Sequence record: ON470590
Reading direction: 5' to 3' (one strand)
From: Escherichia phage vB_EcoS-613R10
DNA: 38,680 nucleotides
Of the stretch, positions 13,382-23,930 are shown piece by piece. Position 1 is the first letter of the stretch, and each line of letters starts with the position of its first letter. Under the pieces are notes generated by a model. It was not told where the DNA came from. It made no database searches and saw only the letters and a list, made by a program, of their open reading frames with translations. The position numbers and the translations under genes are program-made.

Positions 13382-13903
13382 TGAAAATTCCTCAAGTTGG
13401 AGAGTTCTGGAACATTAAGGCGAGGTGGCAGTAATGCACCATCTGTAATCTTTTGATACTGACGTAATCGGGCCTGATGTGCAACGCCTTGCAAGTATGT
13501 AACTCATTGAAAACGATCATTTTTATCTATTGACATCAAATGGCAAACTGTCATTGTGCGGCTATGGCAAGTGGCAAATGCTTATAAATCATATGGATAT
13601 AAATAGTACAGAAAGAGTTGTTTTCTCTAGGATATGAGTATACGCCCAATGCTGATTGGTTGAATTTTGTTCTTGTTTTAAAGGGTAAGAGTTTAAAGTG
13701 TTGGCAGTGATGTATTGGATAGTTAGAATTGCTGTGGGTGCTTGAGGCTATCTGCCTCGGGCATGAACACCAAAGGTAGATAGAGAAAAGCCCCAGTTAA
13801 CATTACGCGTCCTGCAAGACGTTTAACATTAATCTGAGGCCATATCTATGCGACACATAGAGATTAGCCTCTTACGGACCGAAAGGTCAAGGAGAAGCAG
13901 GCT

Positions 13904-14029
13904 ATGAAGCAGCAAAAGGCGATGTTAATCGCCCTGATCGTCATCTGTTTAACCGTCATAGTGACGGCACTGGTAACGAGGAAAGACCTCTGCGAGGTAC
14001 GAATCCGAACTGGCAGACGGAGGCTCTGA
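13904..14029 (+). pseudogene. hok-family type I toxin, C-terminally divergent/truncated relic
   Basis: Hand-translated MKQQKAMLIALIVICLTVIVTALVTRKDLCEVRIRTGRRRL (41 aa); the first 37 residues match HokD/RelF as recalled, then it diverges and stops early; SD AAGGAGAAG upstream; hok-like leader begins GGTGCTTGAGGCT near 13738. Confidence 0.6.
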
Positions 14030-14111
14030 TTCGTAGACTACTAATCTGAGTAAAAGACCCAGCGGGGAAAGAACCACGCCGGGACTAGTTAATAAGATAT
14101 TTATAGCGTGG

Positions 14112-14453
14112 CTATTCTTTTTTTGCGGTATAGACTTTTTCGCCTGAGAAGTCTGGAGCTACCCAAAAGTTAATATTAAACTGAGCATCATCGCTTAGTT
14201 CAACACGGTGCCAGTATTGTGGTGGGCTTGTTGCAAAAGCGCCAGCATTAATGACTACTTTTATCTCCGGTTCAGTAGCATTCTCATCAGCAAAACCATA
14301 ATATGTTACAGTACCTTCCATCACGCATAACTGTCCAAAAACACCTGCTGCTGTATTATGATGTGTTAATAACGCTGAAGGTACGTTCTCTTTTGTGAAG
14401 AACGGAGTTGAGCGTTTGATTACCCAGTCTTTAGGAATTCTCTTGTGTGTCAT
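14112..14453 (-). CDS. Small uncharacterised protein, possibly DUF1971/cupin-like
   Basis: 113 aa from ATG at 14453 preceded by GGAGGTGG; family assignment is a weak recollection. Confidence 0.55.
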   Translation of the reverse strand: MTHKRIPKDWVIKRSTPFFTKENVPSALLTHHNTAAGVFGQLCVMEGTVTYYGFADENATEPEIKVVINAGAFATSPPQYWHRVELSDDAQFNINFWVAPDFSGEKVYTAKKE

Positions 14454-15320
14454 AACCACCTCCCATAAAACATGCATTATAAATGCACCTTTTTGAGGGT
14501 TATGTCAAGCTGTTATGAAACACATAATTGATATGTTGATTAGAGGAGAAGATAGAATCAATATGGTTGTTTTTCGTATAACTATTTGTTTTACTTTTAG
14601 TTTGTGCATTCTGTGTGTTAGGAATAACTTATTAAAGTTTAACTAAAAAATCTCGATATAGTCCGCATAGATTACTGTTACTGAATCTTATTGTGTGCAT
14701 TAGTTGTGTTCTGAAATTTCAATTTAATTACTTATGATATATTTTTAACGATAAATGTTTTCCGGGTTAAAGACAGTGGGGGATGAGATAAGCAATATAT
14801 CATTAATCTTGATTATTTCCAGGATGCCTTTACTGTGCATATAAATAAATCATATACGCATCAAATAATGTAAAGGCATCCTTTTAGATATATCTTATCA
14901 AATGTTAATGATTTGAGTGGGAAACATGATTCCAGAAACTAATCATGCGGCTACTTTATAAAAATAATGCCCATATAAAACAGCCAGCGAAAAGGATTAC
15001 GGATAAAAAAGGAGCGAGATGTGCATAGTTGTTATTTTCCATGTTTAACCACCTTAAATAATTGATGATGACGGGATGTGCATCTGTAATGCTTTTGTTG
15101 AAATGTTATGATAAAAAAGAACTTTTTCATAACATTAAAATGTAATTTATCTAATCGTTTTTAATAATAAGTGTTGTATTTCTATCCTTGTATCAGCTAT
15201 TTGATATGTAGTGTTTGTTCATGTTATGTGGAGCTTTACACCATAGCCAGTTTATTTATACTTTATTCGTCAGCCTGAACAACTGGCATCTGCTGCACTG
15301 CGCCATCGAGAGATTGAGAA

Positions 15321-15920
15321 ATGGCGCATATACAACTGGTCAAACAAACCTCTTCTGGACTACTTCTCCCGGCGACGCCGGAGAGTTGCGATTTTTTGCA
15401 TCAAATCAAAATAGGCGAGTGGATACACGCAGACTTTAAGCGTGTGCGTAACTACGCATTCCACAAGCGTTTTTTCAAACTCCTGCAACTGGGATTCGAT
15501 TACTGGACTCCGGTCGGTGGGGCGATCACGCCTCGCGAACGAAAGCTGGTTTCAGGATTCGTTGATTACCTATGTGAATCAGTAGGCCGGGAACATACGC
15601 CAGCTCTGAGCGAAGCCGCAGAGCAATATCTGAATACAGTTGCGACACGCAGAACCCGGGATACGGCATTGCTAAAGTCGTTTGAGGCTTTCCGCGAGTG
15701 GGTAACCATTCAGGCCGGATTTTACACCGAGCATCTTTATCCTGATGGTAGCCATGGGCGTCGGGCGAAATCCATCGCTTTTGCGAATATGGACGAAACC
15801 GAGTTTCAGCAGGTTTATAAATCTGTTCTGAATGTGCTGTGGAACTGGATTCTGTTCCGTAAATTTTCCTCTCCGGAACAAGTCGAAAATGTGACCGCGC
15901 AGCTGCTGGAGTTTGCGTAA
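15321..15920 (+). CDS. DUF1367-family protein (YbcN-like, nin region)
   Basis: 199 aa; resembles DLP12 YbcN-type nin-region proteins from memory (MAxIQL...DFKxxRNYxF...LGFDYW). Confidence 0.65.
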   Translation: MAHIQLVKQTSSGLLLPATPESCDFLHQIKIGEWIHADFKRVRNYAFHKRFFKLLQLGFDYWTPVGGAITPRERKLVSGFVDYLCESVGREHTPALSEAAEQYLNTVATRRTRDTALLKSFEAFREWVTIQAGFYTEHLYPDGSHGRRAKSIAFANMDETEFQQVYKSVLNVLWNWILFRKFSSPEQVENVTAQLLEFA

Positions 15921-16210
15921 TGGTGGATTTACGTAAAGCGGCGCGGGGGCAGATGTGCACCGTCAGAATTCCTGGCTACTGCAATCACGATCCGGAAACG
16001 TCTGTGCTGGCGCATTACCGACTGGCGGGAACGTGCGGAACAGCGACAAAACCACACGATATGCAGGCGGCGATTGCCTGTAGCTCATGCCACGATCTAA
16101 TCGACGGGCGGGTAAAAACCAGCGATTACACCAAAGAAGAATTACGCCTGATGCATGCAGAAGGTGTTTTTCGCACACAAGAAATCTGGAGAAAGGAGGG
16201 ATATTTGTGA
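15920..16210 (+). CDS. DUF1364-family protein (YbcO-like, putative Zn-dependent nuclease)
   Basis: 96 aa; MxDLRKAARGxxCxVRIPGxCN...ACSxCHD pattern with conserved cysteines; start overlaps the upstream stop. Confidence 0.65.
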   Translation: MVDLRKAARGQMCTVRIPGYCNHDPETSVLAHYRLAGTCGTATKPHDMQAAIACSSCHDLIDGRVKTSDYTKEELRLMHAEGVFRTQEIWRKEGYL

Positions 16211-16749
16211 TTTACCCAACGAATACAGGAAAAAGCGGAGAACACCTTCGTCTCGCCACGCTGGAAAGTGTCTGGATTCAGGGCAAACTGCGTATGTGGG
16301 GGCGCTGGTCGTATATTGGCGGTGGCAGGTCAGGAAATATGTTCAATCAGTTGTTGGCATCCAAAAAATTGACGAAAACAGCCATCAATGAAGCCCTGCG
16401 CAGAATGAAAAAAGCGGGAATAGAGAAAGCTGAGCTGGAAGCGTTTTTGCGAGAGATGATCAACGGCAAGCAAAAGAGCTGGCTGGCGCATTGTACTGAT
16501 GCAGAGGCGTTATGTATTGATCGAGTCATAAGTGAGGTGCTGGCAGAGCATCCTGGATTGATTAGTGTCCTCCGGCAACGGTATGAAGGACGGGGGATGA
16601 CTAAGCGCAAAATGGCTGAATTGCTAAATGATGCACATCCTGAGTGGTGTTTTAGCACATGCGAAAAGCGAATTGCTAATTGGTTGGCTGTTGCTGAGTA
16701 TGCCCTATATATTCCCATGCGAGAATCATTTGCTCAAAAAATAGCTTGA
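16207..16749 (+). CDS. Putative late-gene antiterminator (Q-position)
   Basis: 180 aa from GTG at 16207, 6 nt after AAGGAGGG and overlapping the upstream stop; last gene before the late-promoter/terminator region; Cys pairs CTDAEALC and CFSTC. Function inferred from position only. Confidence 0.45.
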   Translation: MIYPTNTGKSGEHLRLATLESVWIQGKLRMWGRWSYIGGGRSGNMFNQLLASKKLTKTAINEALRRMKKAGIEKAELEAFLREMINGKQKSWLAHCTDAEALCIDRVISEVLAEHPGLISVLRQRYEGRGMTKRKMAELLNDAHPEWCFSTCEKRIANWLAVAEYALYIPMRESFAQKIA

Positions 16750-17887: not shown

Positions 17888-18255
17888 ATGAAAATGCACA
17901 ATGCCCCTCATTCCTGGCCTGACTTACTGGAACTCTTACAAAGTTGGTGGCGTGGAGATACGCCGCTGGGTGCAGTGGTTATGTCAATTATTATGGCTGG
18001 TTTGCGCATTGCCTATTTTGGCGGGGGNNNNNNNNNNNNNNNNNNNNNNNNNNNNNNNNNNNNNNNCGAAAAACGCTTGAGATTCTGCTTTGTGGTGCTC
18101 TGACGCTGACCTTTGCATCCGCGCTTGAGTATGTCGGATGGCCTAAATCACTTTCTGTTGCCATTGGTGGTGGGGTGGGGCTGATTGGTGTTGATGCTAT
18201 TCGTGGTGCGGCAATGAGGGTCATCGGTAACAAGTTCGGTGCCCATAAGGAGTAA
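17888..18255 (+). CDS. S: Class I holin (lambda S-like), interrupted by an N-run
   Basis: MKM dual-start motif as in lambda S; hydrophobic segments before and after the gap; C-terminus LIGVDAIRGAAMRVIGNKFG resembles the lambda S tail; directly upstream of the endolysin. Confidence 0.75.
18028..18066. other. Run of N (assembly gap or masked sequence)
   Basis: 39 consecutive N inside the holin gene; the reading frame changes across the gap. Confidence 0.99.
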
Positions 18256-21720: not shown

Positions 21721-22645
21721 TGATTTTTGCGCCTTTATTCTGACTCACGGGCGACCGGACAAAGTTCTGACTTACCGGACGTTGCGTCGTGCTGGCTATA
21801 CCGGGAAAATTTTTATCGTTGTTGATGATGAAGATAAGACACGGCATCAGTACATGGCTGAATTTGGGGAACAGGTGCTGGTGTTTTCCAAAGCCGATAT
21901 CGCCAGTCGTTTTGACGAAGCCGATAATTTCTGTGACCGCCGCTCAATTTTTTACGCCCGTAATGCCTGTTTCGACCTGGCAAAACTGGTCGGGTGTAAA
22001 TACTTCATTCAGCTCGATGATGATTATCACGAGTTCCAGTTTCGGGTGGATCGCAACTATGACCAGGCCTATTTTCCGATAAGGAAACTGGATGCGATCC
22101 TTTCTGAAATGCTGGCGTACTACGAATCAATACCTGCTCTTTCCATCGCTATGTCGCAGGGCGGGGATTTTCTTGGTGACAATGGCGGCCATGCTTCGTG
22201 GGTGAAACGCAAGGCAATGAACAGCTTTATCTGTTCGGTTGAACGACCGTTCTCATTCATGGGGCGCATTAACGAGGATGTGAATACGTACACGAATCTC
22301 GGTCGCTGTGGTGAATTGTTTATGACGATCGGTGCTGTCCAGTTAGGGCAGAAACAGACGCAGAAAAACAGCGGCGGAATGACCGAGCTGTATCTGGATT
22401 CCGGAACCTACGTTAAAAGTTTTTACTCCGTCATGTATGCGCCGTCGTGCGTAAAAATCTCACTGATGGGTGCCAGCCATAAACGCATTCACCATCAGGT
22501 CACCTGGAACAACGCTGCAGTAAAAATCCTTCACGAAAAATACAGGAAGAAGACACCCTGCATATCAATGGGGGTGACAAATGATTCCGTATTCGAAAGT
22601 CGAGTCTCTGGCAGCGTGCCGGATGACTGCACAACAAATCGCTGA
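21713..22645 (+). CDS. Uncharacterised protein with two acidic DxD-like motifs
   Basis: 310 aa from ATG at 21713 preceded by GAGGAGGAGGA, overlapping the ParB-like stop; FIVVDDED and IQLDDDY motifs after hydrophobic strands, which could suggest a nucleotide-sugar transferase fold (weak inference). Confidence 0.65.
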   Translation: MRDDFCAFILTHGRPDKVLTYRTLRRAGYTGKIFIVVDDEDKTRHQYMAEFGEQVLVFSKADIASRFDEADNFCDRRSIFYARNACFDLAKLVGCKYFIQLDDDYHEFQFRVDRNYDQAYFPIRKLDAILSEMLAYYESIPALSIAMSQGGDFLGDNGGHASWVKRKAMNSFICSVERPFSFMGRINEDVNTYTNLGRCGELFMTIGAVQLGQKQTQKNSGGMTELYLDSGTYVKSFYSVMYAPSCVKISLMGASHKRIHHQVTWNNAAVKILHEKYRKKTPCISMGVTNDSVFESRVSGSVPDDCTTNR

Positions 22646-22832
22646 CGTTCTGGATGTTGATCTGAACCGACTGAAAGAAAATCGGGAAGCAATGACAGAT
22701 TTTTATGCGGCCATCCGTAAGGGCAGAGCGAAAGGTGAAGCCGAGTTACGAGCGGCATTGTTTAAGCTTGCCAGAAAAGGGGATGCCTTTGCTCTGCGCG
22801 AACTACTCAGGGTGGATAAAAATCAGGACTAA
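22581..22832 (+). CDS. Small hypothetical protein upstream of small terminase
   Basis: 83 aa; SD GGGGGTGA before the ATG; overlaps the 3' end of the upstream gene by 65 nt; ends 4 nt before the terminase small subunit. Confidence 0.45.
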   Translation: MIPYSKVESLAACRMTAQQIADVLDVDLNRLKENREAMTDFYAAIRKGRAKGEAELRAALFKLARKGDAFALRELLRVDKNQD

Positions 22833-22835
22833 CTG

Positions 22836-23930
22836 ATGAGCAGACCGGACTGGGGGGCGTTGCAGCAGGAGTATATTGCTGAATACACCCGCTCCGGTAT
22901 ATCTCCGGTGGCATGGTGTGAAGCAAGGGGACTGAATTACGCAACAGCCCGTCGTTACATCAAAAAAACTCCGAAAAATGCGCAGACAGAAATGTGCAAA
23001 ACTGCGCAAAAAAGTGCGCAGAAAAAATCTGCGCAGACTGCACAAAAGCGGAACGAAAAATCTCAGGAAAAAAAGCCAGTATTCGATGCGGGCCTGAATG
23101 AGGGCGACGCGGAGGAATTTTCGTTCTGTCCCGATGAATTCGGCATTTCTGACCAGCAGGCTAAGTTTGCGATGCTTGTTGCTCAGGGTAAAAAGCCGAC
23201 AGAGGCGTACCGACTAGCCGGTTATGAGGGGCAAGGTGCGACAGCTAATAGCAACGCCAGTCGTATGCTTAGAAATGCCAGGGTTTTTCGCGCTATCAGC
23301 TACTTCCGCAATCAGTACCAGAAACGCTATACCGCAGACCTGGATTTACTAGTGAGTCAGTTGATGGCCATTGTCCTGGCCGACCCCAATCAGCTTGCAC
23401 AATTTCGCCGTGTTAACTGCCGTTATTGCTGGGGCGAGAATCATCTCTACCAGTGGCGCGATATAGCAGAATTCGACAAGGCAGCGGCGCAGGCTTCCAG
23501 AGATGGCAAACCCGAACCGGAATATGGAGGCCTCGGCTTTGTTGATAACGCCATACCCAATCCGGACTGCCCGAAGTGCTGCGGTGAGGGAACGGGACAG
23601 CTTTATATGGCTGATACCACTCTGCTTGATGGGGATGCGCGGCAATTATATGCAGGGGCAAAATTCGGAAAATTCGGCGTTGAGATCCTGCTGGAGGATA
23701 AGGCTGCCGCCCGGCGTGAATTGTTGCGTTTGCTTTCTGCTGGCGGGGCTTTATGTGCAGATAAGCGGCTACAGGAACTGGAAATTGAACGGCGCAGAAT
23801 GGAAAACCAGAAGCTGCGCAAAGAGATCGAAACGGTGGAAGATAATGAACATCCCCAGCCTGTGGCGATCAATATTAATGTGGTTGATGCCAGAGTAAGG
23901 AGTGATGAAGATGATCTCTCCGACGCTTAA
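22836..23930 (+). CDS. Terminase small subunit
   Basis: 364 aa immediately upstream of and overlapping the large subunit; N-terminal HTH-like region; lysine-rich linker. Confidence 0.7.
   Translation: MSRPDWGALQQEYIAEYTRSGISPVAWCEARGLNYATARRYIKKTPKNAQTEMCKTAQKSAQKKSAQTAQKRNEKSQEKKPVFDAGLNEGDAEEFSFCPDEFGISDQQAKFAMLVAQGKKPTEAYRLAGYEGQGATANSNASRMLRNARVFRAISYFRNQYQKRYTADLDLLVSQLMAIVLADPNQLAQFRRVNCRYCWGENHLYQWRDIAEFDKAAAQASRDGKPEPEYGGLGFVDNAIPNPDCPKCCGEGTGQLYMADTTLLDGDARQLYAGAKFGKFGVEILLEDKAAARRELLRLLSAGGALCADKRLQELEIERRRMENQKLRKEIETVEDNEHPQPVAININVVDARVRSDEDDLSDA

Follow-up and report, generated by a model that had tools for sequence, protein, structure and literature searches.

Introduction

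In phage lambda, the nin and Q genes are read from pR through tR2-tR4 via N antitermination, and Q turns on lysis and, in related phages, toxin genes. In Escherichia coli, yeaR is a known NsrR target. In the Gifsy dinI-antirepressor-irsA operon, the irsA homologue is transcribed from its own promoter outside the immunity region (Lemire et al. 2011, PMC3121763). The present analysis concerns an intergenic tract (positions 14454-15320) in a 38,680-nucleotide stretch of DNA from Escherichia phage vB_EcoS-613R10 (sequence record ON470590). The whole stretch is referred to as the window, and its gene content is that of a Rac-like lambdoid prophage of E. coli. Like the lambda nin region and the moron or defence-cargo insertion sites of temperate phages, the tract lies between replication genes and a NinB-like gene, before Q, and the hypervariable DNA beside it has known defence genes among its contents. 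In contrast to lambda, the nin/Q genes of this prophage have their own (predicted) promoter directly behind a terminator-like hairpin.

An earlier note on this DNA had described the tract as a gap without long open reading frames (ORFs) in which TGTGCAT is repeated five times, and had suggested that a regulatory array, a small RNA or a leader peptide might be present. We consider it fairly likely that the tract is instead a composite intergenic control region at a cargo-insertion site between the early and the nin/Q genes, and not a repeat array. On balance, its sequence points to a patchwork of four parts: a cargo promoter under NsrR-type control, a spacer of orphan sequence, what is probably the gene of a small membrane peptide and, for the Q operon, a promoter followed by a structured leader. 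The idea of a regulatory gap is retained, in that one operator, two or more promoters, a folded leader and probably a small gene are predicted here; the heptamer array and the leader peptide are not. Each of these elements is a fresh member of a familiar kind, and the leader is the one most worth an experiment.

Results

Overall organization of the tract

The tract is flanked by the minus-strand DUF1971 gene on the left and by irsA (DUF1367, NinB-like) on the right (Table 1). The GC content is 0.28-0.33 along the tract (31% overall) and 0.44-0.53 in the flanks, which bears out its description as AT-rich. The left border had been placed at 14478, but in the RefSeq annotation the left gene ends at 14453 and not at 14477. 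Inside the tract there is indeed no ORF of 60 or more amino acids (aa), with the exception of a mechanical 74-aa TTG ORF (15215-15439), which runs out of frame into the next gene. The region studied is 100% identical in the induced phage vB_EcoS-666R9 and in ~100 complete genomes.

Table 1. Position, strand and basis of the features found in the tract and at its borders.
Feature	Position	Strand	Basis or remark
DUF1971 (YeaR/TehB-like) cargo gene	14112..14453	-	Pfam DUF1971 E = 3e-26; RefSeq start 14453; GGGAGGTGG 5 nt upstream of the ATG
NsrR-type 11-1-11 operator, 23 bp, AACATGCATTATAAATGCACCTT (reverse complement AAGGTGCATTTATAATGCATGTT, strand of the gene)	14469..14491	both	matrix score
Putative DUF1971 promoter elements: perfect TATAAT (14481..14476) inside the operator; TTGACA (14508..14503), 21 nt upstream	14476..14508	-	sequence reading and matrix scan
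43-codon ORF (27 codons from the ATG at 14563)	14515..14646	+	"hypothetical" in GenBank; coding doubtful
Five TGTGCAT copies	14603, 14694, 14834, 15020, 15077 (span 14603..15083)	+	exact matches
D1, imperfect direct repeat, 28 nt	14597-14624 and 14688-14715	+	75% identical; carries heptamers 1 and 2
Long hairpin, 13-bp perfect outer stem (14821-14833 / 14870-14882), then UUU	14821..14886	+	fold and inverted repeat
28-codon ORF, unannotated, MENNNYAHLAPFLSVILFAGCFIWALFL	14956..15042	-	polar N-terminus and one hydrophobic helix
D7, short repeat CGRGATGTGCAT	15015-15026 and 15072-15083	+	carries heptamers 4 and 5
Inverted repeat ATGTTATG-N17-CATAACAT	15102..15136	both	arms (8 nt) conserved, spacer variable
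Block with the highest conservation in the divergent promoter region (TAAAATGTAATTTATCTAATCGTTTTTAATAATAAG)	15137..15170	both	module conservation
Predicted sigma-70 promoter TTTACA-16-TATACT	15235..15262	+	10/12; best promoter-like site of the region (matrix scan)
HP1, leader hairpin GUCAG-CCUGAACAA-CUGGC, at the predicted +1	15269..15287	+	covariation
HP2, leader hairpin: the partner of UGCGCCAU (15299-15306) is AUGGCGCA, made up of the irsA start codon plus 5 nt; Shine-Dalgarno in the loop	15299..15328	+	complementarity
irsA-ybcO-Q operon: irsA (DUF1367/NinB-like) 15321-15920, ybcO 15920-16210, Q (antiterminator, DUF1133) 16207-16749	15321..16749	+	overlapping stop/start codons

Promoter and leader of the irsA-ybcO-Q operon

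Both hexamers of the predicted irsA promoter are invariant in 50 unique sequences of the right-hand part of the tract (the module, 14955-15320, described below). The leader that follows contains two hairpins, HP1 and HP2. HP1 is overlapped by an invariant 17-mer, AGCCTGAACAACTGGCA, at 15272-15288, which is present in a single copy in the window at up to 3 mismatches. The 17-mer is found in >220 of the retrieved loci, behind at least 7 unrelated upstream sequences, each with a -10-like hexamer (TATACT, TACAAT, TATAAT or CAATAT) just before it. In ~13 unrelated contexts, Salmonella-type relatives included, the -10 hexamer lies 4-7 nt before the hairpin base, and all but one of these hexamers score 5.8-8.7 bits, compared with a 95th percentile of 4.9 for the null. 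This spacing places the beginning of HP1 at the predicted +1.

Covariance and structure across homologous prophages, a check that the earlier note had suggested, were analysed for both hairpins. Among ten distinct 19-nt versions of HP1, compensatory changes are observed in 5 of 5 pairs and 98% of the cells are paired, which none of 500 shuffles matches. Stems such as GCCAG/CUGGC, AACGG/CCGUU and GCUGA/UCAGC enclose the same loop, and further versions have stems of 3-6 bp around the YUGAAC loop. For HP2, MAFFT/RNAalifold on whole leaders misaligned the hairpin; its arms were analysed per sequence and the best complement was chosen. A HP2-like helix of 6-8 bp, with unrelated loops of 10-17 nt, is present in 40 of 40 distinct leaders, and also in Salmonella-type leaders, with 91% of the cells paired, a count that is biased upward by picking the arms for complementarity. 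A double change (C-G to U-A) is seen in 1 of the 8 pairs, and four rows have G-U.

The start of irsA is placed at 15396 in GenBank (ON470614) and at 15321 in RefSeq. The latter is favoured because the conserved hairpin pairs with ATGGCGCA there, and because the resulting MAH N-terminus is common to the rem-like genes.

Known elements were also considered for the leader. In Rfam, the window matches only RalA and sok, with nothing meaningful at E <= 10 in 14300-15500 and none in six variant leader loci; the known RNA families, including IsrK-like prophage small RNAs (sRNAs), gave no match. A nut site was rejected on account of the one copy of the 17-mer in the window and of the lack of a boxA-like sequence between the predicted start and HP1. 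No LexA box (CTG-N10-CAG) was seen near the irsA promoter on inspection by eye only, and LexA control as in the Gifsy dinI-irsA operon was set aside on that basis. Operators of the prophage repressor were rejected for the tract as a whole, as the RacR/Cro intergenic repeats resemble nothing there. Within the window, there is no convincing complement of the HP1 loop that could serve as a partner RNA (AGTTGTTCAG matches at no plausible place). In the literature searched, neither the leader 17-mer nor a report of a promoter in front of nin genes was found.

The rightward transcript would start with the 5'-terminal HP1 and its invariant YUGAAC loop, and would continue into HP2, which would hide the irsA AUG. 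HP1 may stabilize the transcript or dock a trans-acting factor, and the opening of HP2 would set the amount of Q made from this promoter: since irsA, ybcO and Q have overlapping stop and start codons, a hidden irsA start would be expected to limit the synthesis of Q from here.

Two further hairpins were noted in or near the leader. In locus L003 (CFT073-type, rem-like leader class), at the position of 15290-15306 of the window, the 5' arm of HP2 is also part of a 6-bp hairpin, CUGCUG-CGC-CAGCAG. Competition of this hairpin with the occlusion of the start codon would make a two-state switch possible; the leader of the window itself has no obvious equivalent. A terminator-like hairpin with a T run (GCGAC..GTTGC GATTTTTTGC) is located at 15372-15398, ~50 nt into irsA and after the palindrome CCGGCGACGCCGG; it could act together with the leader as an attenuator, or have arisen by chance.

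The right-hand module and the cargo site

The module recurs at 74-76% identity in ~700 further genomes without the left part of the tract; in CFT073, for example, it follows hokD, and in KMi025 the IetAS defence genes. In 84 loci, 26 unrelated contexts were counted in the 2 kb upstream of it, including AbiH, RmrA, PD-Lambda-2, IetAS, insertion sequence (IS) elements and transporters. On the right, two main forms (2-3 contexts) are found, either irsA or a 90-92 aa rem-like gene with DUF968 and RusA behind it. With many contexts on one side and few on the other, the module is a fixed border: judged by its neighbouring sequences, it delimits on the right a hypervariable site for cargo and defence genes, and does so in hundreds of Escherichia prophages. 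The module was absent from Qin of K-12 (hokD-rem).

The module or the irsA promoter always lies behind a terminator-like hairpin on the + strand, which is the hok terminator, the IetS terminator or the long hairpin of Table 1. This constancy suggests that the irsA promoter unit is an autonomous, insulated transcription unit. In a few prophages (loci L026 and L265) an IS element inside the module separates the small ORF from the irsA promoter, which is retained together with its leader.

Genes for IetAS, AbiH, RmrA (RosmerTA), PD-Lambda-2 and PDC-M36-like proteins were observed to the left of the module (loci L004, L075, L086, L094, L043 and others). Large ORFs without a PADLOC match (e.g. 486, 355, 349 and 298 aa) at the same left-hand sites are candidate new defence genes.

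The operator of the DUF1971 gene

At the left edge of the tract, the DUF1971 protein is 44% identical to YeaR of K-12, and the DNA in front of its gene carries a NsrR-type palindrome. The scoring matrix was derived from 27 published NsrR sites of CFT073 (PMC5320621), which themselves score 11.7 to 31.3 bits with a median of 20. The palindrome reaches 26.5 bits, above 26 of the 27 training sites (only ytfE is higher, at 31.3), and the next best site in the window has 12.1 bits. It is kept in the relatives of the tract, with 25.6 bits in the one of 94% identity and 20.6 bits in the one of 88%; the yeaR site of K-12 scores 23.7 bits.

The TATAAT within the operator sits 22 nt upstream of the DUF1971 ATG, a placement in which bound repressor would block the -10 and start of the predicted promoter. 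Given the operator sequence and the known regulation of yeaR, the DUF1971 gene is proposed to be repressed by NsrR and induced by nitric oxide (NO): host NsrR would keep it off in the lysogen until NO inactivates NsrR. No NarL heptamers were seen in the DUF1971 promoter region, inspected by eye only. A candidate single NsrR half-site of 12.9 bits, AAATTACATTT, is located at 15138-15148 on the - strand, in the most conserved block of the module; it was not counted because the other module variant, AAATTAAATTT, loses the key C.

The minus-strand 28-codon ORF

The module also contains an ORF on the - strand that probably, by its sequence features, is a small gene for a single-helix membrane peptide; it would form the leftward unit of the module. 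The ORF is intact and exactly 28 codons long in 148 of 148 copies with enough flank. It is the sole stop-free frame among the six, and the polar N-terminus and the hydrophobic helix are retained in all of its 13 peptide variants. The Shine-Dalgarno sequence AAGGTGG (15055..15049) lies 6 nt from the ATG, and reads AAGGTGG, AAGGTGAG or AAAGTGAG across the copies. A comparison of the two main variants shows changes at 7 of 17 synonymous and 10 of 67 non-synonymous sites (ratio of non-synonymous to synonymous proportions, pN/pS, 0.36; one-sided Fisher p = 0.024), and pN/pS is also low for the mirrored antisense frame.

The peptide is absent from the protein collection (exact look-up) and from the Pfam, NCBIfam and PHROG families, and no mention of it was found in the literature searched. 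The tblastn matches were limited to three induced phages of E. coli with the same module, and among the GTDB species representatives the search pattern used found it in Shigella flexneri and Escherichia ruysiae only.

A 9-aa peptide preceded by a Shine-Dalgarno sequence had been reported on the opposite strand (15019-15048). The AAGGAG is present 5 nt upstream, but both it and the ATG mirror codons 5-13 of the 28-codon ORF. As a leader peptide it would be misplaced, 270 nt upstream of irsA and ~190 nt upstream of its -35 (15235), i.e. before the promoter, and its length varies (9 or 12 codons).

The near-palindrome described upstream of the ORF is real and extends over 15102-15136. In 36 of ~117 copies it contains an A-C mismatch (ATATTATG), and the G-to-A change involved turns the putative -10 TAACAT into TAATAT. 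A frequent change that breaks the stem yet improves the -10 makes a required RNA stem unlikely, and the repeat is better read as promoter DNA. It is possibly, with low confidence, the promoter of the 28-codon ORF (-35/-10 ATGAAA / TAACAT on the - strand).

The size of the peptide, its hydrophobic helix and its strong Shine-Dalgarno would also fit a type I toxin, in parallel to the hok/sok locus that is usually alongside, with an antisense or divergent antitoxin RNA encoded in 15043-15230. The conserved 190-bp upstream region with its inverted repeat and the prophage site beside hok agree with such an assignment. However, there is no conserved complementarity between the upstream region and the mRNA (the only repeat able to pair, GATAAAAAAG, is limited to the variant of the window), no antitoxin promoter or terminator was identified, and the peptide has neither a charged C-terminus nor a match to a toxin family. 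We regard a toxin function as improbable, and retain the description as a probable membrane-peptide gene.

The middle stretch

The sequence between the operator and the module (~14515-14950) was found in no locus lacking the DUF1971 gene, and it matches nothing elsewhere. Beyond E. coli, matches are confined to the coding sequence of DUF1971 and do not include the DNA upstream of it. In most other related prophages, an intact hok terminator directly abuts the right-hand module or the irsA promoter. In the window, hok (13905-14030) is cut to 41 codons and has lost the usual 3' fold-back and terminator (Rfam sok is at 13736-13906). The restriction of the middle stretch to DUF1971 loci, together with the truncated hok, makes the DUF1971 gene and ~14515-14950 look like one cassette that entered between hok and the module and seems to have replaced the 3' end of hok.

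The orphan nature of this part and the position of the module as the conserved right flank of a hypervariable site raise the question of whether the tract, its two outward promoters excepted, is functionless AT-rich filler, a recombination linker at a site of cargo swapping, in which the small ORF and the hairpins are by-products. The identity of the 28-codon ORF (80%), which is no higher than that of the rest of the module, is in line with such filler. Compensatory changes in every HP1 pair and stems of different length around the same loop would nevertheless be unexpected of a linker, as would a HP2 rebuilt around unrelated loops and an ORF open in all 148 copies with a synonymous excess. 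Mere filler is for these reasons an unlikely description, and the composite control region is preferred.

The + strand of the middle stretch contains a 43-codon ORF that belongs to the cassette. Its predicted protein (43/48 aa) forms 3 clusters only, all from the DUF1971 cassette, without a protein-family match, and the substitutions among its variants are too few for the coding test to be informative. The 27-aa peptide from the internal ATG at 14563, which had been listed as preceded by a Shine-Dalgarno, is part of this orphan ORF and is a doubtful candidate: the GGAG is 15 nt away, a poor Shine-Dalgarno, and for either ATG the distance is at least 15 nt.

The 13-bp inverted repeat noted earlier was recovered as the outer stem of the long hairpin, which folds with -22.7 kcal/mol (z = -4.5) on the + strand and -28.1 kcal/mol (z = -5.7) on the - strand. 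In the relatives it is kept with one A-C mismatch and with G-U pairs that are valid only on the + strand. It may end rightward transcription as a terminator or insulator, an assignment that is weakly supported.

The small RNA suggested for the tract could correspond to a trans-acting sRNA on the + strand ending at this hairpin, for instance from a CTGAAA-16-TATGAT promoter (14711-14738) to the hairpin (~14745-14886). The promoter-like site and the very stable hairpin followed by U residues are both kept in three variants, but these are so closely related that the conservation says little. No Rfam family matches, 54 nt of the putative sRNA body are missing from the commonest variant, the hairpin loop is large and the U tract short. 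The sRNA survives as a rival reading, but a poor one, with a small chance of being correct.

The TGTGCAT heptamers

Five same-strand copies of TGTGCAT are present as described (Table 1), and none on the - strand of the tract. They are not each preceded by a purine, as had been stated, the preceding bases being T, G, C, A and A. Locally, their number is far above chance (0.16 expected; 0 of 5000 dinucleotide shuffles reach 5); when every 7-mer is allowed for, 0.5% of the shuffles of the tract have one with 5 copies (P = 0.005). Over the whole window the excess is not so marked: some 7-mer occurs 5 times within 843 nt in 9.7% of block-shuffled windows (P ~0.10), and AAAAATC, found as a control of the scan statistic, is a second real case in the window, with 5 copies on one strand within ~600 nt (22453-23056).

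The copies are not independent, because two pairs of them sit in longer imperfect duplications (D1 and D7). The spacings (91, 140, 186 and 57 nt) are irregular, and only two pairwise extensions beyond the motif exist. The five contexts are unrelated, namely the 43-codon ORF, a copy of the 28-nt repeat, the loop of the long hairpin, codons Ala7-His8 of the 28-codon ORF and the DNA upstream of that ORF.

Conservation in related prophages, which had been proposed as a check, does not favour a regulatory array. The window type has 5 heptamers, the 94% relative 2, and the 88% relative, which is the commonest, 0, in about 104, 54 and 309 complete E. coli genomes, respectively; the homologues with the module only have none. 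The differences are simple transitions or a 2-nt indel. As NsrR half-sites, the heptamers score -0.8 to 5.2 bits, compared with a median of 10.1 for real halves, and were rejected as such.

We are inclined to regard the five copies as incidental, the product of two small duplications and chance in a lineage-specific sequence. That they are the sites of one host or phage regulator, coating the tract as a lineage-specific array and controlling the flanking genes, is very unlikely: the local excess on one strand and the GTGCAT core of good NsrR half-sites such as AAGGTGCATTT would suit such an array, but homologous tracts in ~360 genomes hold 2 or 0 copies with the flanking genes kept, the spacing is irregular, the shared flanks are limited to the two short duplications, the half-site scores are poor, and 10% of shuffled windows have a similar cluster.

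Other observations in the window

The window contains RalR/RalA, recET, a RacR-type switch, ydaT/ydaV, trkG and a hok/sok locus. The Rfam RalA antitoxin RNA (225 bits) adjoins the ralR toxin gene (1622-1800 and 1844-1993), which confirms the Rac lineage. A run of 49 N is present at 18028-18076, in the region of the holin gene.

Discussion

A tentative proposal, which we hold to be possible but doubtful, is that the promoter with HP1 and HP2 forms an undescribed cis-regulatory RNA unit of many Escherichia and Salmonella lambdoid prophages. It would gate translation of irsA (or of the rem-like gene), with which the overlapping operon ending in Q begins, and so provide the phage or the host with a second late-gene checkpoint separate from the repressor switch; the YUGAAC loop would dock an RNA or a protein. 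If the leader does gate Q, it would be a previously undescribed control point for prophage induction.

Several points weigh against the composite reading. All the functions assigned to the elements of the tract are inferred from sequence. The IMG/VR loci are redundant and related, and copy numbers are therefore not independent observations. For HP2, the pair count is biased by the choice of arms and the covariation is on one pair. A promoter capable of producing Q outside the immunity switch would need quieting in the lysogen, for which occlusion by HP2 or silencing of the AT-rich DNA is suggested. Coding support for the small ORF, from 17 substitutions with p = 0.024, is modest, suggestive and not conclusive, and its putative promoter is weak by consensus. 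The stem of the long hairpin is followed by no more than three U residues. The local enrichment of the heptamers is real, and may still reflect a lineage-specific function.

A DUF1971 gene responding to NO would link phage cargo to a host immune signal. The 28-codon ORF, if real, would encode an unannotated membrane peptide that hundreds of E. coli prophages carry and that is too short for gene callers to report, and the module, as the fixed border of a hot spot, offers a handle for finding new cargo. The heptamers are of little importance in themselves; their lesson is that a locally striking repeat count can be incidental.

Comparison with known systems

With iteron and operator arrays the heptamers share a short motif repeated in one orientation in AT-rich DNA, but the motif is not conserved in homologues and the spacing is irregular.

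The 28-codon ORF resembles Hok, TisB, Ibs and ShoB in its single hydrophobic helix in 28 residues, its prophage site by hok and its strong Shine-Dalgarno. It differs from them in having no sequence similarity to any family and no identified antitoxin RNA.

The palindrome at the left edge has the 23-bp 11-1-11 form of the E. coli NsrR operators of ytfE, hmp, ygbA and yeaR-yoaG (compare AAGGTGCATTTATAATGCATGTT with AAGATGCATTTAAAATGCATCTT of ytfE and AAGGTGCATTTATATTACAACTT of ygbA). Here too the -10 is overlapped, and the gene downstream is a YeaR homologue. Unlike yeaR-yoaG, it belongs to a prophage cargo cassette and not to the chromosome, and has no yoaG partner gene.

HP1 recalls, as a lead only, the boxB hairpins and the YUNR U-turn loops, being short, near the 5' end of a predicted phage transcript, and having a covarying stem and an invariant loop; the CUGA or UUGA in this loop is the point of likeness to the U-turn loops of antisense-RNA targets. 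In contrast to boxB of nut sites, it has no boxA, occurs in one copy per phage and in various immunity types, and has a loop of 6-9 nt rather than a GNRA-like pentaloop.

A parallel to the rightward unit is the Gifsy operon, in which a homologue of irsA (DUF1367) likewise has its own promoter outside the immunity region (PMC3121763). In the tract described here, no dinI gene or antirepressor ORF lies upstream, and irsA is the first gene, preceded by the HP1/HP2 leader.

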